From assembly GCA_022824105.1 (NCBI GenBank), contig JAJEAZ010000291.1, positions 1 to 51,178 of the forward strand: 51,178 nucleotides of DNA, written 5' to 3'. Made by a program: the position numbers and the translations under genes. Origin of the DNA: Alphaproteobacteria bacterium (GTDB lineage: Bacteria; Pseudomonadota; Alphaproteobacteria; Bin95). The notes under the pieces are model-generated. The model was not told the origin of the DNA, did no database searches, and was given only the letters and a program-made list of their open reading frames with translations. Positions 15,549-46,309 of the stretch are shown piece by piece (positions within the stretch are counted from its first letter, which is position 1; every line of letters starts with the position of its first letter).

Positions 15549-15563
15549 GGAATGACCCTTCTG

Positions 15564-23889: not shown

Positions 23890-23935
23890 GGCGGTCTCCG
23901 TGATCGGGAAACGGGAGAGGTCGGCGGAACGGCGG

Positions 23936-24322: not shown

Positions 24323-24494
24323 GGGAAGGCTCCCTTGCGTCGGAGGAATGCGGTGCGGGACGGAACGCTCCCGCGTCCCGCCCCGACGGGCGCCCGGCCT
24401 CGGTTCCGCACTGCCTCCGTCCGGAGCGGCGGCGCGATCGGGCATGGATGAAATGGCGCCGGCGCGATCCGAAGACCGGGCGGGACTTGCACCG

Positions 24495-24746
24495 TCAGTG
24501 GGACGGGACCTCCGGCACCGGGCCGGCTGGGCCGAGCTCGACCGCGACCCGGCCGTCGCGGACGGTAACCGTGACGGTGCGGCCGGTCGGCATCAGCCAG
24601 AGCAGGTCGGTCCAGACCGCGTTGGCGATGGCGCGCTTCTGCGCTTCGTCGTCGGGGCCGTCCGGAACGGGAACCCCGGATCGGTGTCCGGGGCAGGCAG
24701 ACACCGATCCGGAGGGACAGGCGGCGGGCATGATGGCGAGCTTCAT
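24495..24746 (-). CDS. Hypothetical small protein (83 aa)
   Basis: ATG 24746 is preceded by GGGAGA. Translation: ..DDEAQKRAIANAVWTDLLWLMPTGRTVTVTVRDGRVAVEL.. Confidence 0.5.
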   Translation of the reverse strand: MKLAIMPAACPSGSVSACPGHRSGVPVPDGPDDEAQKRAIANAVWTDLLWLMPTGRTVTVTVRDGRVAVELGPAGPVPEVPSH

Positions 24747-24839
24747 GGCTGCGGTCTCCCGTGATTGCGAGCGGTCCCGGCGCGCGGCGGCGCCGGAACG
24801 GCTTCGGGGTGGATGGGATGGCGGCGGGCCGGCGGCCGG

Positions 24840-26582: not shown

Positions 26583-26693
26583 GGACGGACCTCCATGGAA
26601 TTGCGGAAACGGAAACGCCCCGCCCGCCTGCCCCGGCCCCCGAGGCGGAGGCGAGGGGTGCCGGGCGGGGCGTTCTGGCGAGGCCTAGGCCGT

Positions 26694-29243
26694 CTATTGG
26701 ACGCGGCGGAGAAACTCGGGGATCTCCAGCGGGTCAGGCGGCGCATCGTGGCCGTTGGCGGCGCCGACACCATGCACGATGACGCGCGGCCCGCCGTCGG
26801 CGGTGGGAACCGCATTCATCGCGTCGATGGCGTCGGCGATGGACGGCTCGGAGCGTCCATCCTCCGGCCCGTCGCCGTGGTTGGCGGTCTCCGGGTCGGT
26901 CCCGGTCCCGACCTCGTCCGGTTCGGGCGCGGATCCGACGGCGCCATTGCCGGTATCCGGTCCGTCGCCCTCCGACGGTTCCGGTTCCGGCGTAGCCTCC
27001 ACGGTCCCAGACCCGGCGGCCGGTTCCGTGAGTTCCGCTTCGGCGGGGTGGCCGTCTCCGTCGGCGCGGGCGGCGAGGGCCTTGGCCCGACGTGCCGTGA
27101 CGTCCGGCGACTCGATACTCTCGACAACCGAGGTCCTGCGCGGCGGATCAGCCGGATTGTCCACGGTCTTGGCCGTGTCAGCGGCCGGTTCCGGCGCTTC
27201 CGCACCGTCGCCCATGCGCCCGGTGTCGAAGGCAGCGAAACCGGGCGGCGTCCAGGCCAGCGCCGCCGCGTGCATGCCGGCGCTCAGGCTCACCGGCCTG
27301 TCTCCCGCCGCGAAGGCGGCCTCCATCGCCTCGGCCAGCACCGGCTTCCGGCTCTTCGCGCGGGCCGACGCCCAGGCGATGCCGAACACCGTGCGGGCGA
27401 CGTCGAGGATGCGCGCCTTGGCGATGCGCGACCACAACATCGCCGCCGTCGGACGGACATGCTGCGCGAAGTCGATGTCGAGCCGGGCGACGGTGGCTTC
27501 GAGCTCGGGACGGGCCTGGGGCTCGAAGGCGAGCTGGGGGTTCACCGTGCGCGCCACACAGGCCGCGAACAGCGCGTGCTTCTCGGACTGCGGCAGCGCC
27601 CGCAGCGCCGTGAAAGACTCGCCGTCGTTCTCGATCTCCAGCCAATCCATGGACAGGCCGGAGCGGTCCTCAAGCATCGCCTCGCCCGGCGACCAGTCCG
27701 CGAAGTCCTCGTCGTTCATCCGCGTCGTCGGCCGGTCGGCGGTCTCGCGCACCGCGATGTCGAGCGCGTGCGGCGTATATCCATGGGTGAACACCGAGCG
27801 CCCCATCTGGAACACCACGAGGTCGAAGGCGGCGTCGAAGTCCCCGGCGAGATACGCCTTGATGAGCGCGGTCCGGATATGCCGCAGATCGTCGGCAAGG
27901 CCGATGCCGACGCCGGCCTCCTTGCGCGCCTCCGCCTCGCGGTCGGGCGGCGGCGCCATCGGCGTGGAAACCGACGTACGGGCGGTGTGGACGCCATGAG
28001 TGGCGGCATTAGGGCCGTTGCCGGCTTCCGATCCCGCCTCGCTTGTCTCTTCCGGCTTCGGCATGTCCTCGGGCTTCACCAGCCCCTGGATGACCTGCAT
28101 CGCGCCGTCATGACCGACGGTGACGATGCAGCCCGCCATGGCGAGGTCCTCGCGGCGGAACACCGCGCGGGCCTCGACGGCGCCCTCGATCTCGTCGAGG
28201 CGGGTCTCGATGGCCTGGGCTTCCGAGATCAGCTCTTCCGTCCACTGCTCGTCGTCGAGCTCGGCGAGTTCGGCCTGCCGGGCTTCCAGCTTCGCAATCT
28301 CCGCCTGCTCCTCGTCGGTCGGCGTGCCGGGCTGCGGCTCAATGCGCCCATAGCGGGCGGTGTCGTCCCACGAGACCTCCGCCATGGCCGTGGCCCACTT
28401 CCAGCGGGTCGCCAGCTCGTCGGCAGCCGCCTGAAGCTTCTCCGTCGCCAGTTTCGCCAGCAGCACCGGGTCCTCGAACCAGACGCCGCTCTCGTCGTCC
28501 CGAGCGAACAGGTCGCGCATGACCGCGCCGCCCGCGGCTTCATAGGCCTCGACGCCGACGAAGCGGGCGATCGCGGTGCCGCCCGGCACCCGCTCCTCGG
28601 TCAGCAGGCGCTTCACCTGCCAGGCGGACGGGCGGTAGTTCTGGGCCGCGACCTGCTCCCAGACCGCCATCTGACGCTCCCGGTCGGCGGTGACGGCGAA
28701 GGCCTTCAGCACCTCGAGGTCGATCTCGCCGGCCCGGTAGGCGTCCAGCAGCTCCGGCGCGGCGTTGCCGAGGCGCAGGCGCTGCTCGACGATGCGTTCG
28801 GAGGCCCCGAACCGCGCCGCGATCGCAGAGACCGACTGCCCGGCGTCGGCCAGCTTCGTGAACGCGACCACTTGGTCGGCGGGGTGCATCGGCACGCGGA
28901 TGACGTTCTCGGCCAGCGAAAGCTCGGCCGGCTCGGCGTCGGCCTTGACCAGGCAGGGTACCGGGTGGTCGGCGTCGAACACCTTGTCCTCGACCAGCGC
29001 CTGCATGGCCTTCAGGCGGCGCCCGCCGGCGACCACTGCGAAACGCTCGGCGTCGTTCTCGCCGGGCTGATCGGCGCGGACGACGAGGTTCTCCAGCAGG
29101 CCGAGGGCGGCGATCGAGGCCTTGAGTTCGGCGTCGGCCCGAGGATCGGGCGGGGTCTTGCGGACGTTCTTGGGGGCGAGCGCGAGCCGGCTCAGCGGGA
29201 TCTCCCGAATGAGCGGTTCGGCCCTGGGGGCGATGAAGTTCAT
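26694..29243 (-). CDS. ParB/Spo0J-family N-terminal-domain protein with a long C-terminal extension
   Basis: 849 aa from MNFIAPRAEPLIREIPLSRLALAPKNVRK. It contains ..LLENLVVR..RFAVVAGGRRL (ParB box) and an HTH ..SVSAIAARFGASERIVEQRLRL. The C-terminal tail is Pro/Glu/Gly-rich. Confidence 0.9.
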   Translation of the reverse strand: MNFIAPRAEPLIREIPLSRLALAPKNVRKTPPDPRADAELKASIAALGLLENLVVRADQPGENDAERFAVVAGGRRLKAMQALVEDKVFDADHPVPCLVKADAEPAELSLAENVIRVPMHPADQVVAFTKLADAGQSVSAIAARFGASERIVEQRLRLGNAAPELLDAYRAGEIDLEVLKAFAVTADRERQMAVWEQVAAQNYRPSAWQVKRLLTEERVPGGTAIARFVGVEAYEAAGGAVMRDLFARDDESGVWFEDPVLLAKLATEKLQAAADELATRWKWATAMAEVSWDDTARYGRIEPQPGTPTDEEQAEIAKLEARQAELAELDDEQWTEELISEAQAIETRLDEIEGAVEARAVFRREDLAMAGCIVTVGHDGAMQVIQGLVKPEDMPKPEETSEAGSEAGNGPNAATHGVHTARTSVSTPMAPPPDREAEARKEAGVGIGLADDLRHIRTALIKAYLAGDFDAAFDLVVFQMGRSVFTHGYTPHALDIAVRETADRPTTRMNDEDFADWSPGEAMLEDRSGLSMDWLEIENDGESFTALRALPQSEKHALFAACVARTVNPQLAFEPQARPELEATVARLDIDFAQHVRPTAAMLWSRIAKARILDVARTVFGIAWASARAKSRKPVLAEAMEAAFAAGDRPVSLSAGMHAAALAWTPPGFAAFDTGRMGDGAEAPEPAADTAKTVDNPADPPRRTSVVESIESPDVTARRAKALAARADGDGHPAEAELTEPAAGSGTVEATPEPEPSEGDGPDTGNGAVGSAPEPDEVGTGTDPETANHGDGPEDGRSEPSIADAIDAMNAVPTADGGPRVIVHGVGAANGHDAPPDPLEIPEFLRRVQ

Positions 29244-29410
29244 GCCAGTCTCCACGGATGGTTGCTTGCAGGCGGCGCGGGACCCTCCGGACCCCGCTTC
29301 GCGCAACCGCCGCATCGCTCCCCACGACCTCTGGGCGACGCCCATGCGCGGACGGTGGACAGCGACGGGTCCGGGAGCGGTGCAGGAGCCGGCCGGCGCG
29401 CGGCGGAAGG

Positions 29411-30073
29411 TCATCCGTTCCGAACCGGCAACAGGCTGTCGGGATACGGCCGCAGCACCAGGCGCCAGCCGTCCGCAGAGGGCTCAATCTCGATGCCCGG
29501 CAGGGCCGAGAGATCGTGGCGTGCGAGGGCGGCAAGCGCGTCCGCCCGGTCGCGATGGACCGGGATCGCCGCATCGAGCCGGTCTGCCACCGCGAGCCAC
29601 CAGTCCACGATCTCGCTTACGCGGACCGGGGTATGGGCCGGTCTGCCGAACGCCATGGCCCCGTCGCCGGCGAACATCCGCTCGCCGTGGCGGCAGCCCC
29701 AGATCTCCGGATGGCGCTCCGCCCAGCCCTTCAGCGCGGGCGCGTTCATGAACCCCAGATCGCGTGCCAGCGCATGGCCGCCCTCGAAATACATCACCGG
29801 CGTCGTCGACCCGTCGGGCCGGGTGGCCATTAGGCTCTCACCGGCATCGTCCAGCGGGAAGTCGGCATCGCGCCGCCAGCTCACCGCCACGCTGTCCATG
29901 AGGCGGCCGAGCGCATACCAGCCGCCATGGCAGGCGATCGTGCGGCAGCCGTCGCGGCGCACGATGCCCCAGTCCATGGGGGCCACACAGTCGCCGCCCT
30001 GGGCGTCGACGGCGCGCCGGATGCGCGCCATGGCGAGGCGGACGGCTTCGGGCGAGGGATGGACGGTCTGCAT
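29411..30073 (-). CDS. Hypothetical protein (220 aa)
   Basis: ATG 30073 is preceded by GAGGAGAA. Translation: ..CRTIACHGGWYALGRLMDSVAVSWRRDADFPLDD..YFEGGHALARDLGFMNAPALKGWAERHPEIWG.. Confidence 0.7.
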   Translation of the reverse strand: MQTVHPSPEAVRLAMARIRRAVDAQGGDCVAPMDWGIVRRDGCRTIACHGGWYALGRLMDSVAVSWRRDADFPLDDAGESLMATRPDGSTTPVMYFEGGHALARDLGFMNAPALKGWAERHPEIWGCRHGERMFAGDGAMAFGRPAHTPVRVSEIVDWWLAVADRLDAAIPVHRDRADALAALARHDLSALPGIEIEPSADGWRLVLRPYPDSLLPVRNG

Positions 30074-30114
30074 GGCGATTCTCCTCGGACGGTGCGGTCA
30101 GGGTCGGGAAAGGG

Positions 30115-30504
30115 TCATCGGCGGCGCGGCCCGCCGTCCGCGATGCGGGTCCAGGCAAGACGGAAGGCGTCGAACCAGCCGAGCCGGCGCGGGTCCGGCC
30201 AGCGCCGGTGAATGGACACCGGCTCGGGCCGCGTGTGGTGGTAGTAGCCACAGGCCGCGATGTCGTTCTCGTGCAGCTCGTCCATGGCATCGACGACGGC
30301 ACCGCCCAGCTCTCCGTCGACATAGCAGGAGAACAGGCAGAAATTGTCGTAGCGCCCGCTCTTCAGCGCGTCGAAGGCGCGACGGTGCTCTTCGGTGATG
30401 TTGGTGGCTATGGCGGCGGTCTCCCCGGCGGTAGCGCGGAGGACCGCCTCCCGGCCCTCCGGATCGCCCGGGAAAGGCCGCCCGCCACCTCCGGCCGCCG
30501 CATC
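30115..30504 (-). pseudogene. Coding-looking frame with no ATG/GTG/TTG start (absent from the ORF track)
   Basis: Manual translation gives ..DAAAGGGGRPFPGDPEGREAVLRATAGETAAIATNITEEHRRAFDALKSGRYDNFCLFSCYVDGELGGAVVDAMDELHENDIAACGYYHHTRPEPVSIHRRWPDPRRLGWFDAFRLAWTRIADGGPRRR, with the stop at the complement of 30115-30117. Codons are strongly GC3-biased. The upstream in-frame stop is reached without any canonical start. Confidence 0.45.
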
Positions 30505-31559: not shown

Positions 31560-33620
31560 ATGATCGTACCGATTTTTCCGCCCCTGGATGGAGAATCCGC
31601 GGAGCGGTTCCATGCGTTTGCCACGAAACTTGCCTGCGCCCAGCGCATGCGCAACGCGAGGGATATGGGTAGCGCATTGGAAGAAGAGATAGCTTGGTGC
31701 CGATCGGCGAGGTGTGGCGAAGAGTATGCGTTGGCCTATGAAGCGTGTGTCCGGGTTCTCACCGACCTCGCGCGGCTCGGCTGGCGTATCGTCGAACAAG
31801 GCTACGGGTTTGCACTGGAGAAAGGCAAGGAACGGGCGGGCAGACGACCGACAGAAGAGATCGTGGCCAGCAAGGAGATGCTGCGCGGTGCGCTGCAGCC
31901 CGTCGTCGATGAACAAAAGCGGCATCCCGCCGTAGTCGACTTCATCACCCGGATGGAAGGAGAAGACCGTTATGGGCGACGCAGCGTGCGGTTGCTCATG
32001 GCGGACGGAGCCGAGCTGGCGGCGAGACTGGCGCCGGCATGTGCGCTGGAGGGTGAAGAACGGGTGGCGGCGCTGGACGACGCCATCAAGCCCTATCTTC
32101 AGGAGGCGGACAGGAGCGTGGATCCGGCCACGGGACGCCGACTTCGGGAGATCTGGCGCTATTTCCGGTACAGCTGGTCGATCCCCCAGGTGACCACGCC
32201 GGGACGGCAGCTGCTTTACCTCGTGAGGGACGGGGCGCATCCGGCGCACCCGGTCATCGGCATCGCCGCGCTCAACAATTGTCCTCTCGAAATGGGGGAG
32301 CCGCGCGAGCGGTACATCGGCTGGCACATTGTGGTGATCGTCGAACGCTTCATCGATGCGGCGGCGAGGGGCAAGGCGGCGCTGGAAGAGGAAGTCGAAT
32401 GGCTCGAACGCCAGATCGAGACGTCGCTCGCGGAAATCGACTGGACCAACCTCGTGACGGCGGCGGAAGTCGCTGCTCCCGAGGATGCGGTGATCCGCCG
32501 GCTCGCGCGGCGCGGGCAGGAATTCTCGAAGTTGCGGGAGACTCTGCTGAGGGAGGTTGCCGGGTCCTCTCGGGATCGGTTCGAGGCCGATCTCTGGGAC
32601 GATGAAACGGCGCCCCCGGTGGATGACGACATTCTGCGGCTGGAGGCGAAGGCGTCGGTCGACGCGCGCATGCACACTGCCCGCAAGCAGCTCGTGGCGA
32701 GGAAGCGGGCTTCCGCATTGTCGCGTCTATTGTCGGCCCGGCTCGCCATCGCCGAGCACCGGGACGAACTCACCGATCCCGAACGCGCCTCTGCGGCGCT
32801 TGGCAAGGACAAGGTAAGAGGTGCGGTAAACATCGTGCTGGAGGCGCTGAAGGGGCGACGGGCCGGTGCCAACCTGCTTGAAATCACGACCTGCGGCGCG
32901 ATCGCGCCCTACAATCGAATTCTTGGCGGCAAGCTGGTTGCGCTGCTGATGCTGAGCCCGCAGATAGGCGTCGACTATCGGCGCCGTTATTCGGGTCCGT
33001 CGATCATCTCGTCGCAGATGAAGAATCGACCGGTGATCCGCGATAACGCGCTGGTCTATCTCGGCACGACCAGCCTCTACGTCCACGGGTCCAGCCAGTA
33101 CAATCGGTTGCGTCTACCGGCCGGGACGATCGCGCCGGACCAGGAAAAGATCAGCTATGACGCGATCGGTCAGACCTCGGGCTTTGGAACGATACAGTTT
33201 TCGCCCGACACGAGCCGCGCGATCGACGCCTTCCTCGCCCGCGAACACGATTTCAGGGAGGTCAACAGTGTCTTCGGGGAAGGAACGAGTCCGAAGCTTC
33301 GCAAGGTGAAGATGGGACTGCGCAGGCTGGGATTCGATCCCGACAAATTGATCCAGCATCGTCATCACCGCCTGATCTACGGCGCCCCGCTCTTTCCGAC
33401 GGCGCGGGAGTGGCTGCAGGAACGCGTTGAGGAGCTGCCGGGCTATGTCGCGGCGCCGGACGCCTATGCGGACGCTACGGAACGCATTGCCGCCTTCTGG
33501 CGTCGGCGCTGGCTCGCAAGCCGGGTCCGTCACGGGCCCAGCATGGCTGCTCTGCCGCGCGACGGTTTCGTACCCCTGGGGGAGGCGGGAGAACAGATGG
33601 TCGGAGAAGCCGGGCCATGA
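31560..33620 (+). CDS. DUF4338-like (DruA-like) protein, 686 aa
   Basis: WRYFRYSWSIPQVTTPGRQLLYLVRDGAHPAHPVIGIAALNNCPLEMGEPRERYIGW and LLEITTCGAIAPYNRILGGKLVALLML resemble the DUF4338 core. The stop overlaps the next ATG (ATGA). Confidence 0.7.
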   Translation: MIVPIFPPLDGESAERFHAFATKLACAQRMRNARDMGSALEEEIAWCRSARCGEEYALAYEACVRVLTDLARLGWRIVEQGYGFALEKGKERAGRRPTEEIVASKEMLRGALQPVVDEQKRHPAVVDFITRMEGEDRYGRRSVRLLMADGAELAARLAPACALEGEERVAALDDAIKPYLQEADRSVDPATGRRLREIWRYFRYSWSIPQVTTPGRQLLYLVRDGAHPAHPVIGIAALNNCPLEMGEPRERYIGWHIVVIVERFIDAAARGKAALEEEVEWLERQIETSLAEIDWTNLVTAAEVAAPEDAVIRRLARRGQEFSKLRETLLREVAGSSRDRFEADLWDDETAPPVDDDILRLEAKASVDARMHTARKQLVARKRASALSRLLSARLAIAEHRDELTDPERASAALGKDKVRGAVNIVLEALKGRRAGANLLEITTCGAIAPYNRILGGKLVALLMLSPQIGVDYRRRYSGPSIISSQMKNRPVIRDNALVYLGTTSLYVHGSSQYNRLRLPAGTIAPDQEKISYDAIGQTSGFGTIQFSPDTSRAIDAFLAREHDFREVNSVFGEGTSPKLRKVKMGLRRLGFDPDKLIQHRHHRLIYGAPLFPTAREWLQERVEELPGYVAAPDAYADATERIAAFWRRRWLASRVRHGPSMAALPRDGFVPLGEAGEQMVGEAGP

Positions 33621-35221
33621 GCAAGGGAGAAGGCAGCCCGGTGGTCGCGGATGACGGCGCCAGGTTGTGGCGCACCCTTGCCGCAGCGGGCAGGGAAGCG
33701 ACCGCGGAAGCGTTGACGGAAGAGGATTTCGAGCGGCTGCACGTTGCTGGCGGGATCGAGCGTTTCGTCGTCGAACGGGTGCGGGCGGGTGGGAGCGTCG
33801 TCGTCACCGGGAATGCCGGGGACGGCAAGACGCACTTGCTGCGGCGCGTGAAGCGCGATCTCGAAAGTGCCGGCGCAGTCGTGGTCGAAGACGCGACCGC
33901 TGAGATGGTGGACGATGATCCGCGTCCTGTCCTCGACAAGTGGCGCGCGGCCGTGGAAGCGGGGCAGCCGTTTTGCCTGGCCGCGAACGAATACCCGTTC
34001 TACCAGTTGAGAATGTCGGGTAAGTCGGCCCCGCATATGGCGGAGGTGGGGCGGCAATGCCGGCACCGTCTGGCCTACGGGGAGGGGGAACGGTCCGAGT
34101 GCGCCGCCGGCGACGTGGTGGTGATCGATCTCAGCCTGCGAAACCCGCTGAGCGCGGAATTCTTCGAGACCATGCTGGACAGATTGTTGGCGGACGATGG
34201 GCTGAAGGCAGCGCTGGCGCGCCCGGAAGAATCGGCCGCCCGCCGGAATGTAGAGCTTCTTTCTCATCCCCGGGTGCGTGAGCGATTGCGGGCCCTGGCC
34301 GATCGGCTGGTGGCGTTGGGCCATCGCGCCACGGTGCGCGAGTTGTGGATCCTGTTTGCTCGGATGGTGTTCGGTCGGGGGGAGCGCGGCGCGTATCAGC
34401 GTGCGGACTGGTATTCGGAGGCGCTGTTCGGTCGCGACGAGCGCTTCGAGTTGACGGAGTCCCTGCAGGCGGTCGATCCCGCGAAATGCAGCCATCCGAT
34501 ATGGGATGCCGCGCTCGACGCCCGTGCGCCCGCAGTGCGCGGCGGATGGGCGCTGCGCGCGCCGTTGCCGGCGCCGCATCCGACGCTCGAGTGGGAGGAT
34601 TTTGCTGCGCTCAAGCGCCGTTTCTATTTCGAGCACGAGAAGGGCGAGGAGGCGTTCGAGCTGGCCGACGCGGATGCGGGTGAGTTCGAACGGCTTCTGG
34701 ACGGGGATGGGGGCTCGGGCCGGACGCTTGTCACAAGCCTGGTCGAAGCCATCAACGCGGCCTACTGCCCAGTCCGCTTCGAGTCGCGCGATCAGCACCT
34801 GTATCTGTGGAACGGTCACCGCTTTCACGAGCAACCGTCCCGGTCCTTCGTCGCCGCCGAACGCGTCCCCACGGAACAATTCGTAACGGAAGTGCCGCGC
34901 CTGCCGGAGCGGCTGGAGACGTGCTTCGAATATCGTCCGGACCATATCGCGCTGACTGCGCACGGGCACCCGGGAACGCCGCGGCTGAGGATCGACTTTC
35001 CGCTCTGGCGGACGCTCCGCCGGCTGGCGCGCGGCCTGCCGCGGAAGCTGATTCCGGAGCGCGACATTCACCGCCTGGACGCCTTCCTCCAGGAGCTCGG
35101 TGCCGGGGCGGTCGGGGCGCGAGACAGCATCTGGTCGGTTCACCTGGAGAACCTGGAGCTGATCCAGGTAAACCTCAGCGCGGACAGAAGCCGCTTCGAA
35201 CGGGTGCGCCGCTATGGCTAA
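33617..35221 (+). CDS. P-loop ATPase, DptF (DndF)-like, 534 aa
   Basis: Walker A VVVTGNAGDGKTHLLRR (33809-33835), then VVVEDATAE and ..QPFCLAANEYPF.. The size and position match DptF. The gene is coupled to both neighbours. Confidence 0.65.
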   Translation: MSKGEGSPVVADDGARLWRTLAAAGREATAEALTEEDFERLHVAGGIERFVVERVRAGGSVVVTGNAGDGKTHLLRRVKRDLESAGAVVVEDATAEMVDDDPRPVLDKWRAAVEAGQPFCLAANEYPFYQLRMSGKSAPHMAEVGRQCRHRLAYGEGERSECAAGDVVVIDLSLRNPLSAEFFETMLDRLLADDGLKAALARPEESAARRNVELLSHPRVRERLRALADRLVALGHRATVRELWILFARMVFGRGERGAYQRADWYSEALFGRDERFELTESLQAVDPAKCSHPIWDAALDARAPAVRGGWALRAPLPAPHPTLEWEDFAALKRRFYFEHEKGEEAFELADADAGEFERLLDGDGGSGRTLVTSLVEAINAAYCPVRFESRDQHLYLWNGHRFHEQPSRSFVAAERVPTEQFVTEVPRLPERLETCFEYRPDHIALTAHGHPGTPRLRIDFPLWRTLRRLARGLPRKLIPERDIHRLDAFLQELGAGAVGARDSIWSVHLENLELIQVNLSADRSRFERVRRYG

Positions 35222-36572
35222 GGCAAAGCGAACGGCGGCGCAGAGGAAGGCGGACACGGCTGCCGAGCGCCGGGTGCATGGTGCCATCCTCGGATACCAG
35301 CCCTATCGCATGAAGCCGGTTCACTTCGCCACGAGTTTTCTTCTTGCATTGACCGGCCGCTATTACCGGCTCGAATACCTGAATAAGGCCTCGGTTCCGA
35401 AGACGGCGCCGAGGGACAAGCGGAGCGTTCAGGACGAATACCCGTCCGATCGGCTTCATTCCCGGCTGGTCGATCTTGAGAAACTGGACCCGTCGGTCGA
35501 CCTGGAGTCGTTCCGCACACTTCGCGCGCACTTGAACGCGGCATATAACAACGACGGTTCGGCCTTGGCAGCCGTCTTCCCGCCCTATTCGACGTTCGGC
35601 GCGGACTACAGTGCCCCCTCGACCAGGTACATCTCGGACCGGTCGAAAAACCACGGTTATTCGGGAAGCTTCGTCGTTTCGGTCCTGGGAGCCAGCGCCG
35701 AGGGACGGAGAGCGCTCGGAAATATCGAACGGCTGCTGGAGCTTCCGCCGCCGCCGCTGGCCGCGTTCGGCGAGCCGCTGCTCGACGACGCGGAGGAGGA
35801 ATGGTGCGATCGGCACGACGAACTCTACGGTGCGATCTTGCCGGGAAGGCTGGCGCGGATTGGATCGGAAATGGAGGACTGCACCGTTGCAATAGGCCAA
35901 CTCGCCGCGAATCTGGAACGGCTGCGATCCAGCTATTCGATGCGCTACATGGTGCTGGGGCTCTGCTGCTGGCTGTTTGCCTACATGATGCGCCAAGGAA
36001 GCGATTCACCGCTGCTGCTGGTCGACGCGCTGCAGGGACGCAATTCCAGGATCCGCGCGCAGAGCCGGGCCACCTACGCGCGGGCGCTGGACCTTTTTTC
36101 GTCAAGCTATGATCGGGCCTTTACAGCGTCCAACGGCTCGGGGATCGAGGAAGACGACTGGAATGTGTTCGCCGGCTCGGCGGAAGCCCGTCAGGTTCTG
36201 GATGAGCACTTTCGGGACCTGGGCGTGCGGATCGGCATCGTGCAACCCCGCTCCGCGGTCGCCAAGCACAAGCATGTCGAGCTACAAGCGGACACGCTTC
36301 GGGTGCTTGCGTACAGCCTGCTTGATGAGGGCCAGGTGCTGACCCTGCCGGCATTTGCAGCGCAACTCAGAAGTGTCTGGTCAATCCTGGTCGGTGCCCA
36401 GGCATCGGACGTCGACGTTCTGCGTGCAAACCGCTTCGGGCCCCTCGATCACGACGAGGATCTGCGACCGAACGCGGATGCGTTCCAAACGCTGCTGGTG
36501 AGACTGGGTCTGGCGGTAGAGCCATCGGACGGGCTGACGCTGGTCGCAATTGACGCGGAAGAGGCGATCTGA
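35214..36572 (+). CDS. DptG (DndG)-like protein, 452 aa
   Basis: ATG 35214 overlaps the upstream stop (ATGGCTAA). The C-terminus reads ..DLGVRIGIVQPRSAVAKHKHVELQADTLRVLAYSLLDEGQVLTLPAFAAQLRSVWSILVG.. The assignment rests mainly on size and order. Confidence 0.55.
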   Translation: MAKAKRTAAQRKADTAAERRVHGAILGYQPYRMKPVHFATSFLLALTGRYYRLEYLNKASVPKTAPRDKRSVQDEYPSDRLHSRLVDLEKLDPSVDLESFRTLRAHLNAAYNNDGSALAAVFPPYSTFGADYSAPSTRYISDRSKNHGYSGSFVVSVLGASAEGRRALGNIERLLELPPPPLAAFGEPLLDDAEEEWCDRHDELYGAILPGRLARIGSEMEDCTVAIGQLAANLERLRSSYSMRYMVLGLCCWLFAYMMRQGSDSPLLLVDALQGRNSRIRAQSRATYARALDLFSSSYDRAFTASNGSGIEEDDWNVFAGSAEARQVLDEHFRDLGVRIGIVQPRSAVAKHKHVELQADTLRVLAYSLLDEGQVLTLPAFAAQLRSVWSILVGAQASDVDVLRANRFGPLDHDEDLRPNADAFQTLLVRLGLAVEPSDGLTLVAIDAEEAI

Positions 36573-36573
36573 G

Positions 36574-39500
36574 ATGGCGCGCACCGCAACATCGCTGGTG
36601 AGCGAGGCCCTGGCGGTCTGGATCCTCTCGCGGCTGGACCAAGAAAACGATTTCGCACGAGAGGGACTTCCGGAGTTCGACATTCCGCGCCTGCTTCAGG
36701 CGCTTTCGGAGGGAGGATTGCCGGCCGGGCGCTTTTCGCTGGCGCTGGTCGGATTCGAGACGACAGAAGAGGAAGTGCGGGCACTCGCGGATGCGAATGG
36801 CCTCGGCGCGCTGGCCGGGGTGACGCTCGATCTCCATGTCGCCACCGAGTGGCGCAACGATCGCGACCGGCATCCGAGGATCGTCGTGCTGGCGCGCGGC
36901 TACAATTCGGGCGTGCATGGCTTGCGCTTCTTCTCCCGCGCCTCTTCGGGAGAGCTCGCGGCCATTCTGTTGGGCTGGGCGGAAAACGCATCCGAATACA
37001 CGGCCACGCCACAGCACCGAGCGTTGCTGGAGAAGCTGGGTCAGGCGCGGGGGCTGGGGTCGGTTCGGTCCCTGGAGGGTGTCGCAGCCTTTCTCGCCGA
37101 ATGGAGCGAGGGACGCGACGAGGCGATCGGCAGGCCGCGCGACGTTCTTCCCGCTCTCGGACTGCTCCGCGATCCGCAATTATTCGAAGCGGACGATCTG
37201 GGCAAGCGGCTCGAACACAATCTGCGTGTAGGGGAACGCGTAACCATCATGTCGCCGGGGGACATCCGGCAGCGGCGTGAGCGCGCGACGCGTTACCGTG
37301 ACGTAGAGACGGCCAAGCTGGTGACCCGGGCACTGGACCGGCTGGAAGCCCATCGGCGCGGCGAGCCCGACGCCGGGCTGACGCTGGCGGATGCGGATCG
37401 TCTCGTGAAACTTCCCGCCGATCCGCCACCGATCCCCGGCTCGGAGGCGGACGAGACGGACGTTTCGGACAAAAACGACAACGAGGGCGGCGGCGTCGAG
37501 GAAGAGGACGAATCCGGACTGCACGAGATGGCGGTGGACGCGCTGCTGGAGGGGCGCGATGAAGACCTCGCGGCCATCGGCGACGCCCTCGAAGCGGCGT
37601 GGGATGAATTCGGGCAGAACGGGGACCGGCTGGCGTCCAGTCAGGAAACCAGCCAGGGGGTGGCCCGGCTCGAAGAGCAGGTCGACCCCAAAGTCATCGA
37701 CTGGGTTACCGCCTTCTGTGGCGTGGATCGCTTCGGCGGGCTCATTGAGACCGACATCGGTGACCTGCCGCAGGCGCTTGCCCGCCATGCCGAGTTCAAT
37801 CCCCTATTCCTGGACCCGGACTCGATCTGGAAGCACAACGGGGTCTCATACTCGATCGAGGCACTGCTCGAAGGGTGGGATGACGTGGATGCTGTCGCAG
37901 AAGCCCGGCCGCGCCCGATAATATCCATGTGGCGTGATTTCGTCGCCGCGCGCGCCTCGCTTGCGGAGAGGGTGGGCCCGCTTCTCATCCATCCTCGCGA
38001 ATGGCTCGACACCCATCCCGAAACGCGGGATGGGTGCGGGCGCTACCTCGCGGTGGCGACCGAGCTCTACAAGGCGATCCAACAGAATTACCGGGCAGTC
38101 TGGGACCAGTCGCCTGAGTGGGCGCAGGCGACGCTGGACGCTCTTCTGTCGCTCGATCTGGTGCAGATCCGGATTACGGGTCTGGACGGTGGATTCAGCG
38201 CCAAGGCGGTGATGCTGCCGCTGCATCCGCTGCATCTGTGGCGCTACCAGCGTTTCGGGGAAATTCTCCGCGATCTCTCGCGTGCAGGCCCCTTATCCGA
38301 GAGCGACAGGAAGGTCGTCATCGAGGAGTTGCGCCGTCCGGAACGCTTTGTCGGCGTCATAAGGACCGGGGCTACGCCGGAAGGGCGGGGGCTCAACCAG
38401 CTGCTTCCGGTCGCCAACAGGATTTGCGGCCTCGCGACGTTCGAGAACCTGCACAACGCGATCAGCAGCGCCGACGGCATGGAGACGCTGGTCCTCGCGC
38501 TCGATCACTTCGTGATGCTCTACCCCAACCATCCCCGCCCGCTCCGGTTGACGCTGGTCAATCCGCCCGAGCCGGCGCGGCTGCTTGAGCGGCTGACGAA
38601 ATTCCTCAATGAACGGCGAAACACCGGCGGACGTCTTCCCGCCCTCGAAGTGACGGTCGTCGCCACGGCCGGGCACCGGGACCGACTGACGGCGACGTCG
38701 ACCCTCGAAGGCGGAGCGCAGGACCTGGTCTATGAGCAAGTCTCCGCCGGCCGGCTCGATCTGCGTGTAGCGAGCGATCCCCATGAAAGCCTCGACCGGC
38801 TGGTGCGGGAGGTGCTGTCGAAACGTCCGCAGCACCTGGTTGCGATCTTCGACGAGTCCGCGATCTCGGTCAGGCGCAGGCGGGTCGAGCGCCTGCTGCC
38901 GATGAGTCCGTTCTGCGTGCGCAACGAGATCATGGTCGATCGGATGCTGGGCGATATCAGCCTGAGTCCGCACCCCGGCGAACCGCCGTTCTCGGATTTC
39001 GTGATGATGATCCACGAGTTCGAACAGGAGCAGCGGGACAGCACGATGGTCGCCTCGGCGGATGCGGACCGGCTGCGCTCGACGATTGACGGACTGCTTC
39101 TAGGAGAGCGAGCGCCGGCACACTGGGTCCTGCTTGCAGATCGCGCTCTGCCGCCGGAAAACGGCATGACGTCCATCCGCCTCCTGCAACGCAGGGAAGG
39201 GCATCGCCAGGTGCTGCTGAGTGCGGCGGATTACGGTCGGCTGTCGACGTTGATGTATGCCGCGTTCAGGAGCTGCAATCTCACGATCACGGATGAGGGG
39301 CTGGGCCACGTTCTGCGGCAGGGCGTGAACCTGGTCGGCGCCGGGCTGCTCGACATGATCAAGAAGCAATCCGGATTGCCGGACAATGCGTCGGTGCTCG
39401 GGTTTGTGGGCATGTTGCTCGCGGCGCGGCGTGTAAGAAGTGAGGATCGGCATGCGCTGGTCGCCTCGGTCGACGGGCCGGTCGCGCGCCTGTGGCTGAA

Positions 39501-41346
39501 GCTGGGCCCGGCGGGCGACGGCAGGCGCTGCGATCTGATTGCGATTCGTCGAGGGTCGGACGGGTCGTTCCGGATCACCTGTATCGAAGTCAAGACGACC
39601 GGGGAACCGGTCCTCTCCGACGAGACGGTGCTGATCGGCCACGCGGCAGACCAGATCGAACGGACGGCGGCGGTAGTGTCGAGCGCGGTTGGGGGGTCGG
39701 GGCCGTTCGCGGCGCCGCGCTCGGAGATGCTGAAGGAGGTCTTGGTGAGGGCGGCATCAAGCCGCTGGGGCGCCGAGCAGGAAGACGTCGCCCAGCGCAG
39801 GATCTGGGGGCCGCTGCTCAAGGACCTGTTCGGGGACGGTCCCGAACCGCCGGTCGTCAGGGTGGACGGTGAGGTCGTCATCGTGAAGCTGCGGTCGACG
39901 GAGCCGGCCGGGGCGAGGCCGCTCGGGGGGAGGGAAATCCCGATCTCGGTCAGGACGATAACCGAGAAGGCGGCGGAGGCGCTGTTCGGCAACGATTTCG
40001 TAACCGAGGCTCCGCTGGAAGATGCGGATCCGGACGGCGATGCTGCGGATGGAGAAGACAGCGGCGGGCGGTGTTCGGCCGGTGAAGAGTCGGCATCGAC
40101 GACCGACCATGCTTCCGGACCAGTTTCGGAACCGCGGGATGGTGGCGGGACCAGGGGAACGGCAACCGAAAGGGGCAAGGATGAGCCGTCCTCGACCGGT
40201 GCCGATGCGGCGGCCAGGAGGGAGCGTCGGGGCGCGACGGAGGCGTCGACGACCTCGGCGGCGGTCAATCGCGCGAATGAAGCGGTTGTAGGAGGAGCGT
40301 TGAACGCGGGATCGGTCTGGCCGCCGCGGGTGAACGCGCTGGGAATGGTCGGACAGTACGAAATCGCCCAGGAACTCGACAATCAGGCGCGCAAGGCCAG
40401 GGGCTGGGGCGAGAGGTTCTTGGACAAGTTGTTCGTTGGGCCTGCCGGCGTTGGCAAGACGACGCTCGCCCGCAGGATTGCAGAACGACTGCTTCAGCTG
40501 GAACCGATGGTGTTCAATGGCGCCGATCTTCGCCGGCCGGATATGATCGTGGAGCGACTGGTGGAGGCCGGCAAGGCGCCGGCGGACGCAGCGGGAGAGG
40601 TCACGGTCGCCCCCTGTCTGATCTTCATAGACGAGGTGCATGCGGTCGCGAGCCCGGTTTCCACGGTGCTGCTCAGCGCGTTAGACGAGCGGCGCAGCAC
40701 CACGATCGGAAATGTGGTCTACAGCTTCGAGGACGTCGTGTTCCTTCTCGCGACCACGGATCCGGGCAGGCTCTCGGAGGCGTTCCAGAGCCGGCCGGAT
40801 AAGACGATCTTGCGCTCCTACACGCTTGAGGAGATGGCCGGGATCGTCTGGCTCCGCTCCGTGGAGACGCTCGGGCAAACGGGTCTCAGTCGCGAGACCT
40901 GTATTGAGATTGCGGCGCGCATGCAGTGCAGCCCACGGCCGAGCGTTAACATTCTCGAGCCGCTGGTCGCGAGCTTCTACGGAACGGCGGAGCACAGGTT
41001 GGGGCGGGTGCCGACCAGGGAAGAAGTGGCGGGCCTGATGAACGCGGCTGCTGTGGCGCGGTGGTTTGAAGATGCGCATGGCATCGACCGCAACGGCCTT
41101 ACCTCGGAACATGTGGAATATCTCAAGCTGCTGCGGACCCGCGGTGCCTCGGCGGAGGAGGAGATTCGCCGTGCGCTCGGAATCTCCAACCGGGCCGACT
41201 TCGTGATCGTGTCGGAATATCTGACTCGTCTCGACCTGATCCGCGTCGGACCCGGCGGGCGGAGCCTTACCTCCGATGGCAGGCGTTATCTCTCCGCGTC
41301 GTCCCCACCCGACCTCCGTGACCGGATATCGCGTCGCATGAACTGA
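36574..41346 (+). CDS. Large DptH (DndH)-like protein with an internal PD-(D/E)xK-like motif and a C-terminal RuvB-like AAA+ module, 1590 aa
   Basis: ATG 36574 lies 2 nt after the upstream stop. Nuclease-like motif: CDLIAIRRGSDGSFRITCIEVKTT (39529-39600). An acidic/Gly-rich linker follows. AAA+ motifs are FVGPAGVGKTTLARR (40438-40464), LIFIDEVHAV (40618-40641) and FLLATTDPGRLSEAFQSRPD, followed by a winged-helix-like tail. Confidence 0.6.
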   Translation: MARTATSLVSEALAVWILSRLDQENDFAREGLPEFDIPRLLQALSEGGLPAGRFSLALVGFETTEEEVRALADANGLGALAGVTLDLHVATEWRNDRDRHPRIVVLARGYNSGVHGLRFFSRASSGELAAILLGWAENASEYTATPQHRALLEKLGQARGLGSVRSLEGVAAFLAEWSEGRDEAIGRPRDVLPALGLLRDPQLFEADDLGKRLEHNLRVGERVTIMSPGDIRQRRERATRYRDVETAKLVTRALDRLEAHRRGEPDAGLTLADADRLVKLPADPPPIPGSEADETDVSDKNDNEGGGVEEEDESGLHEMAVDALLEGRDEDLAAIGDALEAAWDEFGQNGDRLASSQETSQGVARLEEQVDPKVIDWVTAFCGVDRFGGLIETDIGDLPQALARHAEFNPLFLDPDSIWKHNGVSYSIEALLEGWDDVDAVAEARPRPIISMWRDFVAARASLAERVGPLLIHPREWLDTHPETRDGCGRYLAVATELYKAIQQNYRAVWDQSPEWAQATLDALLSLDLVQIRITGLDGGFSAKAVMLPLHPLHLWRYQRFGEILRDLSRAGPLSESDRKVVIEELRRPERFVGVIRTGATPEGRGLNQLLPVANRICGLATFENLHNAISSADGMETLVLALDHFVMLYPNHPRPLRLTLVNPPEPARLLERLTKFLNERRNTGGRLPALEVTVVATAGHRDRLTATSTLEGGAQDLVYEQVSAGRLDLRVASDPHESLDRLVREVLSKRPQHLVAIFDESAISVRRRRVERLLPMSPFCVRNEIMVDRMLGDISLSPHPGEPPFSDFVMMIHEFEQEQRDSTMVASADADRLRSTIDGLLLGERAPAHWVLLADRALPPENGMTSIRLLQRREGHRQVLLSAADYGRLSTLMYAAFRSCNLTITDEGLGHVLRQGVNLVGAGLLDMIKKQSGLPDNASVLGFVGMLLAARRVRSEDRHALVASVDGPVARLWLKLGPAGDGRRCDLIAIRRGSDGSFRITCIEVKTTGEPVLSDETVLIGHAADQIERTAAVVSSAVGGSGPFAAPRSEMLKEVLVRAASSRWGAEQEDVAQRRIWGPLLKDLFGDGPEPPVVRVDGEVVIVKLRSTEPAGARPLGGREIPISVRTITEKAAEALFGNDFVTEAPLEDADPDGDAADGEDSGGRCSAGEESASTTDHASGPVSEPRDGGGTRGTATERGKDEPSSTGADAAARRERRGATEASTTSAAVNRANEAVVGGALNAGSVWPPRVNALGMVGQYEIAQELDNQARKARGWGERFLDKLFVGPAGVGKTTLARRIAERLLQLEPMVFNGADLRRPDMIVERLVEAGKAPADAAGEVTVAPCLIFIDEVHAVASPVSTVLLSALDERRSTTIGNVVYSFEDVVFLLATTDPGRLSEAFQSRPDKTILRSYTLEEMAGIVWLRSVETLGQTGLSRETCIEIAARMQCSPRPSVNILEPLVASFYGTAEHRLGRVPTREEVAGLMNAAAVARWFEDAHGIDRNGLTSEHVEYLKLLRTRGASAEEEIRRALGISNRADFVIVSEYLTRLDLIRVGPGGRSLTSDGRRYLSASSPPDLRDRISRRMN

Positions 41347-42020
41347 AGTGTGTCCGGCGCGGGGCATTGGCGACGGGCCGGCGGAGGAGGCTACTTCCCG
41401 GTCGGCGTGCTGGATACACGCCGTGGTAACGAACCTGGTGAGTGGGGCTCGCATGTGCTGAAAGGCGCCCGAAACGGCGACTGGAAGACCTTCGCGGGAA
41501 TGCCGAAGGTCGTGCTGGAGGGCCGGGTGCTGGAGACCATTTCCATCATGGAGTATGTCTGGGAGGAGGACCAACACGGTTCTGGCGAACGAGAAAACGC
41601 TACGAGTGCAAAGGTAAGCGGACGGATGAGATGGCGGCGGAGAGGATAGTGGCTCGTATGCACTGGGCTTGGCACACCGCGCTTCCGCGGCCGGATGGCT
41701 GGCGGCATCGACCGAAGGGGTCGGGCGGCGTCTGGATGTGGAAACCGGCTGGTTACGGCACGATGACGGCGACCGCGCTGCGCGGATCGCTATACTGGTG
41801 GGAATGGAGCCGCGCCTTGAGGTTGATGCCGGCTCCTCGGCCCGCGTAGACGGTTGGTTGCATATGAGGCAAGAAGGTCGTGGAGAAACAGACGCGCCAC
41901 AATAAATGGACAACGGTATGGGCGTAGAGTTGGTTGACCCGCTATGCTGAAGAATAGAGAACGGAGATTTGTGGTATATGGGTCCCGCAACTAACGAAAT
42001 TAGTTCAATGGGAGCATTGT

Positions 42021-43199: not shown

Positions 43200-43730
43200 C
43201 TACTCCAACAAGTCGCCGAAGCTGTCGAGATTAAGGCGAAAGCGATGCCGATCAGACCATTCGCGCTTTATGCGATCGGCTTCCTCAACGCCAAGCAAGT
43301 TCTGGCGGATCATCGATACGACCAGATCCTGCGTTGTCAGGATGTGGAGCGATGGAGCGAAACGACGCGCGAGCCGGTTGGCGACACGGTCATCGATGGC
43401 CAACGAATATCCACGCTGGACTGCGACGGCGATCGCGGAACACTCGCCTGCGCCCAGGCGTCCGGTGGCTGACAGGGAGGCGAAGAGACGGAGTTCTTCA
43501 GCGGCGGCAACGGGAATAAGGGTAAGGGTCCCGGAATCGAGCGCGGAAGCGAAGCGTCGCTGTTGATCGGGATATCGGTCCGACACTTCGTTGGCAACAT
43601 GGTCGGTGGCGAGGAAGGCATGGGAATGGCCGGCGATCAGATCGATCCTGTCGATACGCAGGAAGTTGATCAGGACCGAGGCGTCGGTGACGATGATCGC
43701 CGGCCGATCAGGTTCTGGGGAAACGCTCAC
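43200..43730 (-). CDS. PIN-domain protein
   Basis: 176 aa: AIIVTDASVLINFLRIDRIDLI..ATDHVANEV..GECSAIAVAVQRGYSLAIDDRVA (acidic PIN residues). The GTG start overlaps the upstream stop (GTGA). Confidence 0.8.
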   Translation of the reverse strand: MSVSPEPDRPAIIVTDASVLINFLRIDRIDLIAGHSHAFLATDHVANEVSDRYPDQQRRFASALDSGTLTLIPVAAAEELRLFASLSATGRLGAGECSAIAVAVQRGYSLAIDDRVANRLARRFAPSLHILTTQDLVVSMIRQNLLGVEEADRIKREWSDRHRFRLNLDSFGDLLE

Positions 43731-44965
43731 CTAGCCCGAGCCACTTCGGCAAGGCTAAGTAGAATGTCGCGGTCGATCCTCAGCATCTTGCTCATTTCGA
43801 GGACGCGTCCGCGCGAAATTTCCTCGCGGCGGTAAGCCTCGATGGCGAGATGGACAATTTCACTTCGGAGTTCGCGATCCCAGTATCTCCGCCTTTCAGG
43901 CTCGCCGACCTCGCTGAACATACTGAGAGCCTTCAGGTATTTGCGGCCGAAGTTTTCTTGATCCAGGAGTCCCCGACATTCCCTGTCGGAGACGTATCTG
44001 AGGCTCTTGAGGCGGTAGGACGCGGCCTGATAGCTCACTCCGAAGTGATGGGCGAGCATGGCGTTGTCTTTGTAGGTAATGCGTTGTGAGCGCGCAGGAG
44101 GGCGCTGTGCCGCCTCGATGTGGCCGCCGCTTGCCGCGTCGAATATGGCGTGATCGAGGCGGCTTGGCAGACCCTTATCGAGAGTTCGCAGGAAGTCACG
44201 AAAGCCGCCCCTGGGCATCAGAAAGGCGGCGGCAAAGGCGTTCGCGCGCTTTTCGACCAGTTGGGAAGAGTTATCGGTGCTGGAGATCGTAACGTCGCGA
44301 TCGCGGTCCAGTAAAGCGTGCGCGTATTCGTGCGCATAGGAGAAGCGCTTTCGGCCCCTGGGATGGGTCGAGTTGACAAGTATTGCGAGGCCGATACTGG
44401 AATGACGGAGAAACAGACCGGACATTCCATCCGGTAGCGCGACCCCGGATGCCCAAATGCCTTGAGAGGCGATGAGTTCGGAGACATCGGCTATGGGGGC
44501 GTTCCCGATGCCGAGGCGCCGCCGCTCTTGTTCCGCAGCCTGCTCGCCGTGGGAGATAGCTTCGCCTGGAGAACGTGGCATATGCGGCTCGTATCTCGGC
44601 GGGCCGGAGCGGGGCTCAGCGCCGAGCAGACGCTCGAGCATCACGCCTTCCCGGCAAAGATGGACGCAGCGCGCCACCTGCTCCGGGGTGGCCGGATCTT
44701 GCTCAAGGCCGGGGGCCGCGCGATGCAAGGCGACGAGAACGTCGTCGTCATCGCCTTCGGCTGGGTCCTGAAGGAAATCGGCGACGGGGCGAAGGTAGAG
44801 CTCTGACAGTGCTGTAAGTTCCAGGGTCGAGACTGACCGGTTGCCCGCTTCCAGCTGGGTGATGGCCGTTCGAGCAAGGCCCAATGCCTGGGCGACCTCC
44901 TGCTGACTGAGGCCGCGCGCTACGCGGGCCGTGCGCAATCGGCGTCCCAAGGTCTCCGCATCCAT
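43727..44965 (-). CDS. Fused XRE HTH + ImmA/IrrE metallopeptidase regulator (CapH-CapP-like fusion)
   Basis: 412 aa. The HTH is LGRRLRTARVARGLSQQEVAQALGLARTAITQLEAGNRSVS. The peptidase HEXXH is FSYAHEYAHALLD, followed by ..EKRANAFAAAFLMP. RBS GGGAGGA. It is divergent from the CBASS operon. Confidence 0.9.
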   Translation of the reverse strand: MDAETLGRRLRTARVARGLSQQEVAQALGLARTAITQLEAGNRSVSTLELTALSELYLRPVADFLQDPAEGDDDDVLVALHRAAPGLEQDPATPEQVARCVHLCREGVMLERLLGAEPRSGPPRYEPHMPRSPGEAISHGEQAAEQERRRLGIGNAPIADVSELIASQGIWASGVALPDGMSGLFLRHSSIGLAILVNSTHPRGRKRFSYAHEYAHALLDRDRDVTISSTDNSSQLVEKRANAFAAAFLMPRGGFRDFLRTLDKGLPSRLDHAIFDAASGGHIEAAQRPPARSQRITYKDNAMLAHHFGVSYQAASYRLKSLRYVSDRECRGLLDQENFGRKYLKALSMFSEVGEPERRRYWDRELRSEIVHLAIEAYRREEISRGRVLEMSKMLRIDRDILLSLAEVARAR

Positions 44966-45058: not shown

Positions 45059-45155
45059 GATCGATGATCGTACATATGATTCGTGCGGTGTGGCCTGAGG
45101 GTGCGTACGGCGCGGTTCGGGTGCGGATGTCTCAAGCGGGACGCAGACAACGACA

Positions 45156-46295: not shown

Positions 46296-46309
46296 ACTGG
46301 AGAGAACAG

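Follow-up and report, generated by a model that had tools for sequence, protein, structure and literature searches.

A DruA-led gene cassette resembling the DndFGH and SspFGH restriction complexes, with a putative RuvB-like motor

What kind of system is encoded by an operon that opens with a Druantia gene and continues with three genes recalling a phosphorothioate (PT)-dependent restriction complex? The question is raised by four plus-strand genes, here called genes 1 to 4, on contig JAJEAZ010000291.1 of an Alphaproteobacteria bacterium (assembly GCA_022824105.1), of which the whole 51,178-nucleotide (nt) stretch was analysed and is referred to as the window. An earlier note, made from the letters alone, had read these genes as a Druantia/Dnd hybrid. 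In our analysis, the four genes are probably a standalone, horizontally mobile defence cassette of the restriction type, belonging to the DndFGH/SspFGH class and led by a DruA-like accessory protein.

The operon and its DruA-like first gene

The four genes form a single operon-like unit, as the earlier note had proposed. Read directly from the sequence, genes 1 and 2 overlap by 4 nt (ccATGAgc) and genes 2 and 3 by 8 nt (ATGGCTAA), while 1 nt separates genes 3 and 4 (TGAgATG); both overlaps are those originally described, but the last gap had been given as 2 nt. All four are real genes and not the shadow open reading frames (ORFs) of a high-GC genome, since the GC content of their third codon positions (GC3, 0.74-0.79) exceeds that of the second (GC2, 0.47-0.52) in the manner expected of coding DNA there, and at least 120 homologues are listed for each of them. 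The cassette block has about 65% GC and the DNA upstream about 71%. The 1801-amino-acid (aa) ORF directly upstream (24993-30398, plus strand) was rejected as a shadow ORF, codon-position GC and Pfam favouring three minus-strand genes in its place. Scans for promoter and terminator consensus sequences were uninformative, the DNA being high-GC.

Gene 1 was correctly recognised as a DUF4338 protein of the DruA type. It contains the GRQLLYLVRD motif, matches Pfam PF14236 (DruA/DUF4338) at 5e-29 (102 bits, cut-off 27), and aligns through aa 57-665 with the PADLOC DruA1 profile PDLC00001 at 2e-127, end to end on this 675-position model. PGAP labels such genes 'Druantia anti-phage system protein DruA'. 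Against a canonical 409-aa DruA, hhalign gave a probability of 99.2 and hmmsearch aligned two blocks; the N-terminal ~190 aa of gene 1 are family-specific and unlike canonical DruA.

How much of Druantia is present beyond this protein? Type I Druantia, reportedly the DruABCDE system of Doron and colleagues (2018), shares with the cassette a DUF4338 DruA that opens the operon, a giant DNA-motor protein and an occurrence on plasmids and islands. In the canonical loci that we compared (P. putida pKF715A, Nitrosococcus and Ralstonia), however, a short DruA of 409-413 aa precedes DruB, DruC, DruD and the DEAD/DUF1998 protein DruE, whereas the DruA of the window has 686 aa, with an insertion and another N-terminus. 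Genes 2 and 3 were rejected as relatives of DruB, DruC or DruD (hhalign probability <=1% against the three loci), none of genes 2-4 matched the PADLOC models of DruB, DruC, DruD or DruE, and no DUF1998/MZB protein, the YprA-type helicase that DruE represents, was found in the window. On these comparisons DruA is the only component common to type I Druantia and the cassette; of the hybrid originally proposed, the shared DruA stands, but nothing else of Druantia does.

Genes 2-4 compared with the DndFGH and SspFGH complexes

The other half of the hybrid, in which genes 2-4 had been equated with DptF, DptG and DptH, was not borne out at the level of the named families. With the NCBIfam Dpt equivalog models (TIGR03238, TIGR03236 and TIGR03237), gene 2 scored 15 bits against DptF, with a cut-off of 50 and over the P-loop region only, and genes 3 and 4 gave no match to DptG or DptH. 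The family is instead closer to Ssp, SspFGH being the restriction arm of SspABCD-SspFGH (Wang et al. 2021, PMC8092258).

Gene 2 does have the P-loop motif GNAGDGKTH noticed earlier, and its profile matches place it in the DndF/SspF family, nearer to SspF. In PADLOC the window protein matched SspF models only (4e-11, aa 29-249). Every one of the 40 family members compared matched SspF (best 6e-18), and 28 of the 40 matched DndF (best 3e-10), mainly over aa 29-254. D92 is invariant in the family alignment, as are the canonical Walker A motif and the asparagine of Walker B (Table 1); the replacement of Asp by Asn at this position is a peculiarity of the DndF P-loop kinases (PMC10853773).

The window protein of gene 3 matched nothing in Pfam, NCBIfam, PADLOC or the PDB sequences, and sequence and profile searches of the PDB sequences with genes 1-3 returned nothing beyond P-loop noise. 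Among its relatives the sole PADLOC families matched were those of SspG (4/39 at about 1e-3), and in distant cassettes the gene 3 proteins matched SspG at 1.7e-6 and 9e-6. The AlphaFold2 model of gene 3 (pLDDT 82, pTM 0.85) had as its top Foldseek match in the PDB the crystal structure of DndG, 7exx (probability 0.96, end-to-end alignment), and the next full-length matches had probabilities of <=0.07. As modelled, gene 3 would have a DndG-like fold, with 7exx as its only credible PDB match, in agreement with the DptG likeness suggested before, and its length falls in the ~450-500 aa range of DndG and SspG; the DndG structure consists of three winged-helix domains.

Gene 4 joins a large body to a C-terminal motor. 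The PD-(D/E)xK-like D..IEVK motif reported in the earlier note (DLIAIRRGSDGSFRITCIEVK) proved to belong to a conserved triad: D987, E1005 and K1007 are invariant in 38 homologues and also in 31 distant body homologues (D957, E975 and K977 in their numbering), and they line up across forms with AAA+ and FtsK motors, about 70 homologues overall. Gene 4 is thus predicted to carry a conserved, active-looking PD-(D/E)xK nuclease located, as in DndH and SspH, upstream of the motor. Ahead of the nuclease, a beta-strand leads into N663-P-P-E666, a methyltransferase motif IV without its aromatic residue, which is non-aromatic in all the forms aligned. Whole-chain Foldseek searches with the AlphaFold2 model of the body (1200 aa, pLDDT 75) returned weak matches to HemK, RsmC, other methyltransferases and P-loop domains (best E 0.1). 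DndH and SspH contain an inactive Dam-like methyltransferase with target recognition domains, together with an N-terminal inactive superfamily 2 (SF2) C-domain, a helix-turn-helix (HTH) and beta-sandwiches (PMC10853773). Gene 4 agrees with the DndH layout of inactive Dam, restriction endonuclease and motor, but the match of the bodies is no more than suggestive.

The motor itself is of another kind. RuvB is the Holliday-junction branch-migration motor, a ring-shaped translocase of double-stranded DNA, and the last ~330 aa of gene 4 match it over its whole length, with the AAA+ large and small domains and a C-terminal winged helix (Pfam AAA 1e-15, RuvB_N 2e-6, RuvB_C 8e-4; NCBIfam RuvB PRK00080, NF000868, 4e-17 over positions 27-327 of 330; PDB RuvB 7x7p, 9e-6). 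Walker A and B, the Arg-finger-like SRP and the sensor-2-like PR are kept, in columns conserved at >=90%. We rejected this motor as a RuvB orthologue because it scored 62 bits against the NF000868 cut-off of 282 (51 bits against TIGR00635, cut-off 299); it is RuvB-like in architecture only, follows a nuclease body of about 1250 aa in the same protein and has no RuvA or RuvC context.

Elsewhere the same cassette ends in a different motor. In distant cassettes (Exiguobacterium, Tissierellales, another Bacillota metagenome-assembled genome (MAG), and Treponema) that keep the gene order of the window and a homologous gene 4 body, the gene 4 hidden Markov model (HMM) matched only over ~27-1194 (E 5e-63 to 8e-41), and the C-terminus was made of FtsK_alpha and FtsK/SpoIIIE, matching PADLOC SspH over 1200-1560 at 1e-76 to 3e-63. 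A plasmid of the archaeon Haloplanus encodes a DruA of 705 aa, hypothetical proteins of 519 and 500 aa, and a "DNA translocase FtsK" of 1535 aa. Since gene 4 homologues in the same cassette end in an FtsK module, the AAA+ domain is a motor replacement. An exhaustive phmmer search with the ATPase-less gene 4 body gave 281 cluster representatives. HerA/FtsK-class motors were present in 30/31 distant full-length body homologues; 19-20 of these motors were closest to SspH and 10 to DndH, and one homologue matched BrxL. Further body homologues have ATPases of the TrwB/VirD4-like or HerA-like kind. Neighbour-joining on the body grouped the AAA+ forms in one clade, interleaved with TrwB-like forms, inside a radiation ending in HerA, FtsK or TrwB motors, and the tree together with the distant HerA/FtsK forms shows that the AAA+ motor is derived. 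An ancestral FtsK/HerA-type pump has accordingly been swapped for a RuvB-like AAA+ in the lineage of the window. The published account of HerA/FtsK "capture" by DndH-type effectors describes only motors of the HerA/FtsK class (PMC10853773), and the AAA+ motor extends this to a different ATPase class. When annotated DptH proteins on plasmids with an SspH-like FtsK C-terminus were sought, only the same DruA cassette and cellular FtsK were returned. One body homologue, P0391 (1550 aa), has a different AAA+ C-terminus; it appears to be the single scanned member matching PADLOC BrxL (7e-18), which hints at yet another motor acquisition.

Taken against the two complexes, the cassette shares with SspFGH the three-gene F-G-H order and similar sizes, and the best match of the FtsK module of its sister cassettes is to the SspH C-terminus, at the same position. 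It differs in having no sspABCD partner and an extra DruA that is always upstream or fused, in an H-like body that SspH models do not recognise and, in the window, in the RuvB-like AAA+ that stands in place of the FtsK motor. With DndFGH/DptFGH it has in common a P-loop kinase-type F subunit with an Asn in Walker B, a G subunit of predicted DndG fold, and an H subunit of ~1600 aa in which a putative methyltransferase-like domain with decayed motif IV, an intact nuclease and a C-terminal ring motor follow one another, the motor module having been exchanged repeatedly. Unlike DndFGH, the body of gene 4 represents a separate sequence family, its motor is a classical AAA+ and not of the HerA/FtsK class that the sister cassettes possess, and DruA is a separate gene in the window, whereas some DndF proteins have an N-terminal DUF4338/GNAT fusion.

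Distribution, mobility and neighbouring genes

The cassette is widespread and travels as a block. A scan of GTDB species genomes with the gene 1 profile gave 34 loci in Pseudomonadota, Acidobacteriota, Binatia, Verrucomicrobiota, Bacillota and Spirochaetota, and the cassette was also found in Bacteroidota and haloarchaea. Wherever a locus had a sufficient length of undamaged DNA downstream, local HMMs detected genes 2, 3 and 4 in that order; the cassette was intact, in the same order and between unrelated flanks in 17 genome loci and in 8/8 Pfam-annotated neighbourhoods. Genes 1 and 2 were fused in at least 7 loci, and a Hymenobacter plasmid carries the fused form interrupted by an IS3 element. 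MAGs of other phyla share 80-86% DNA identity with the window from 31559/31560 to 41346-41351, and as this cross-phylum homology is bounded by the cassette ends, the cassette moves as one unit. A megablast search of the operon against plasmids gave no match. The earlier note had seen no modification genes within 51 kb, and our scan of 24 sizeable ORFs in the window likewise revealed no dnd or ssp genes, nor did any lie within 10 kb in the 8 annotated neighbourhoods, so that neither dndABCDE nor sspABCD is linked to the cassette.

About nine copies, roughly a quarter of the related loci (L009, L014, L018, L023, L025, L028, L033, L034 and L039), are degraded by frameshifts, truncation or insertion sequences (IS), which suggests that the cassette is costly and often inactivated. 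The gene 4 family comprises at least 129 clusters of ~1550-1600 aa, annotated merely as "AAA family ATPase", and all homologues of genes 2 and 3 bear the label "hypothetical". As annotation tools reduce the cassette to an orphan DruA, hypothetical proteins and an "AAA family ATPase" or "FtsK", it is missed in defence censuses.

Several loci deserve separate mention. In a Blastocatellia MAG (L020:9959-14464), genes 1, 2 and 3 seemingly form one 1501-aa ORF, either through fusion of all three or as an artefact of assembly or of a frameshift. In Rhizobium ruizarguesonis (L001:16490-24393), the cassette is followed by a 2060-aa DEAD/MZB (DUF1998) helicase with YjiV_N and by a NERD/UvrD-type helicase; these adjoining helicases are a separate YprA-family system, Druantia III or ARMADA-like. 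A common divergent trio, encoding a 766-775-aa HATPase_c_3 protein and proteins of 377 aa and ~270 aa, lies upstream of the cassette in Sphingomonas (L002:49-4366) and Caulobacter (L047:511-4747), and may represent either a further defence system or a partner conserved on the island.

The window as a whole is an integrative element, whose defence cargo comprises AbiEii, two HTH/M78 regulators and the type II CBASS (Table 1). The mobile-element backbone spans 13925-30100 on the minus strand, plus the integrase, and the genes at the left end may be further cargo, with a role in anti-defence or repair. A tRNA-Ser(GGA) called by ARAGORN at 16587-16677 (plus strand) is probably a false positive, as it lies inside the coding sequence of the Sno-like helicase on the opposite strand.

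Table 1. Features of the cassette and of its surroundings in the window (cassette first)
Feature	Position (nt)	Strand	Description
Gene 1	31560-33620	+	686 aa; long-form DruA-like protein; DUF4338 core at aa 196-265 and aa 436-620, with a ~170-aa insertion between
Gene 2	33617-35221	+	534 aa; DndF/SspF-family P-loop protein (kinase-like)
Gene 2, Walker A GNAGDGKTH	33809-33835	+	aa 65-73; invariant in family alignment
Gene 2, Walker B with Asn (AANE)		+	N124-E125; invariant in family alignment
Gene 3	35214-36572	+	452 aa; DndG/SspG-like predicted DNA-binding protein; multiple winged-helix domains predicted
Gene 4	36574-41346	+	1590 aa counted from ATG; the mechanical ORF opens at TTG 36550
Gene 4, body	36574-40344	+	aa 1-1257; motifs common to AAA+ and FtsK forms, including the archaeal one
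Gene 4, N-terminal alpha/beta domain		+	WRN at aa 93-95, invariant
Gene 4, rest of body			helical and beta domains, Rossmann-like domain, PD-(D/E)xK nuclease, low-confidence linker
Gene 4, decayed methyltransferase motif IV (N663-P-P-E666)	38560-38571	+	in the Rossmann-like domain
Gene 4, PD-(D/E)xK signature (D987 ... E1005-V-K1007)	39532-39594	+	conserved across homologues
Gene 4, motor	40345-41346	+	aa 1258-1590; RuvB-like classical AAA+ with C-terminal winged helix
Gene 4, motor Walker A GPAGVGKT		+	aa 1289-1296
Gene 4, motor Walker B LIFIDE		+	aa 1349-1354
YAcAr SLOG-domain protein, Macro+NADAR fusion (ADP-ribose processing), 2OG-Fe(II) oxygenase	1456-6885	-	left end of window
Second M78 protein	9423-10397	-	9-14 kb is a block of lower GC (about 62%)
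Weak ThiF-like ORF	12284-13786		next to second M78 protein
AbiEii toxin	13925-15073	-
Sno-like AAA_34/Helicase_C_4 helicase	15988-20871	-	1627 aa
RadC	22512-23753	-
ParB-like protein	26694-29414	-	906 aa
HTH and M78 (ImmA/IrrE-like) regulator with partner	43200-44965	-	412 aa and 176 aa; between cassette and CBASS
Type II CBASS operon	45099-49184	+	about 4 kb downstream of cassette
CBASS patatin phospholipase	45099-46295	+
CBASS DncV-like CD-NTase	46289-47356	+
CBASS Cap2-like E1/E2 protein	47328-49184	+
Tyrosine integrase	50150-51178	-	cut by window end

A candidate mechanism, its alternatives and its meaning

DndFGH forms a 2:2:1 complex that nicks DNA in a translocation-coupled way; self DNA that bears PT marks keeps its ATPase repressed, and the host is damaged when PT is lacking (PMC11662687). 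SspFGH behaves similarly (PMC8092258). By analogy, the products of genes 2-4 may form a complex of this kind. Gene 3, through its winged helices, would bind DNA; gene 2 would be a nucleotide-binding regulator or sensor; and gene 4 would be the effector, in which domains that read DNA and a methyltransferase-like domain that has lost its activity accompany an active PD-(D/E)xK nuclease, and which is driven along double-stranded DNA by a hexameric motor, a RuvB-like AAA+ in the lineage of the window. Nicking during translocation would then provide defence. Gene 1 presumably works physically with gene 2, because both are fused in many relatives, and would most likely license the complex, whether by sensing, by gating or as a back-up effector. 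In the neighbourhoods examined, no PT module travels with the cassette. The DUF4338 domain of DruA has been assigned a GNAT (acyltransferase) fold, and the authors of that assignment favour a back-up effector acting on proteins (PMC10853773).

Several observations weigh against placing the cassette in the DndFGH/SspFGH class. The SspF match of gene 2 is limited to the N-terminal ~230 aa, and the match of gene 3 to 7exx is modest (TM-score 0.36, E 0.04). Gene 4 bodies from four divergent loci had no PADLOC match at E<5, the DndH and SspH models included, and in the 31 distant body homologues the SspH/DndH scores fit the C-terminal motor only, leaving homology of the bodies unproven; the likeness to DndH consists of architecture, two motifs and weak whole-chain fold matches. 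With its body missed by every DndH/SspH model and a RuvB-like AAA+ where HerA/FtsK would be expected, gene 4 cannot keep the name DptH that the earlier note gave it. The GNAT fold of gene 1 is taken from a single published assignment (PMC10853773). Finally, canonical DndFGH is toxic without PT marks, which speaks against a version that stands alone and would still have to spare self DNA.

This last difficulty would vanish if the cassette were the restriction arm of a conventional PT system whose dnd or ssp genes, located elsewhere in the genome, mark self in trans. The validated DndFGH and SspFGH complexes do need PT marks and are toxic without them (PMC11662687, PMC8092258), gene 2 is nearest to SspF, and the host genome is covered by the 51-kb window only. 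We nevertheless consider this explanation unlikely: the cassette crosses phyla alone, the homology going no further than its borders, neither the window nor the 10 kb examined in each of the 8 annotated neighbourhoods holds a dnd or ssp gene, its constant extra partner is DruA and not a PT enzyme, and DndFGH is commonly decoupled from modification (PMC10853773). The same decoupling makes outdated the premise of the earlier note that DptFGH normally accompanies dndABCDE.

Self DNA might instead be protected by DruA, if this GNAT-fold protein were a modification arm that marks self DNA or a chromosomal protein, the whole being a restriction-modification (R-M)-like system with a non-PT mark. The cassette offers no other candidate for self/non-self discrimination, and DruA is never missing and in many cases forms one protein with the F subunit. 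Modification-restriction fusions are known in other R-M types, and the Mom protein of phage Mu is a GNAT-fold enzyme that modifies DNA bases. DNA modification by DruA is, however, purely hypothetical, and type I Druantia is not known to involve any modification; with the fold taken from one source, whose authors place the action on proteins, we regard a modification arm as quite unlikely. That the cassette serves the mobile element, in DNA processing, segregation, competitor exclusion or addiction, and not host defence against phages, is suggested by its position among the integrase, ParB-like, RadC and Sno-like genes, by a relative that adjoins a type IV secretion system, and by swapped-in motors (FtsK, TrwB/VirD4-like, HerA) typical of conjugation and segregation. 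Yet many loci lie between ordinary chromosomal genes, the neighbours in the window are defence systems (CBASS, AbiE), the conserved active-looking nuclease and sensor-type partners fit restriction, and the degraded copies are as expected of a costly immune gene set; plasmid exclusion would, moreover, itself count as defence. A role confined to the element thus looks very unlikely to us. As to a variant of type I Druantia in which DruA acts by the Druantia route with replacements for DruB-E, gene 1 matches PADLOC DruA1 in full, PGAP names such genes DruA, and in both systems a very large DNA-motor protein accompanies DruA; but the match of genes 2 and 3 to Ssp and Dnd families instead of DruB/C/D, the long DruA and the missing DruE helicase make such a variant extremely improbable.

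Returning to the cassette as a standalone DndFGH/SspFGH-class complex, the earlier note had thought the pairing of DUF4338 with Dnd-type genes undescribed. It is not wholly new, because standalone DndFGH have been reported as common, and the domains listed as fused to the N-terminus of DndF include a GNAT domain "annotated as DUF4338" (Rakesh, Aravind and Krishnan 2024, PMC10853773). In the literature searched we found no description of the AAA+ motor form, of a DruA-led F-G-H family across Bacteria and Archaea, or of self-contained mobility, and these appear to be new.

DruA could even be the missing self/non-self element, an F-coupled GNAT-fold enzyme that gives host DNA, or a protein bound to DNA, a non-PT mark, or that responds to infection by acylating the complex. 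We hold this to be quite doubtful, but if it were true, the cassette would be a complete portable restriction system of new logic, its RuvB-like motor would direct the complex to branched replication or recombination intermediates and not to plain duplex, and the DruA module would explain the licensing of type I Druantia.

With no modification genes of its own, the cassette makes a pointed question of what restrains such a translocating nickase, which is toxic in canonical systems, from acting on self DNA. Through DruA it links two separately annotated defence families, and the fusion of DruA to the F subunit provides a concrete DruA partner to test. The motor slot, which accepts a classical RuvB-like AAA+ ring translocase as well as TrwB-like ATPases, constitutes a natural motor-swap series with which to ask what the motor adds to target choice.

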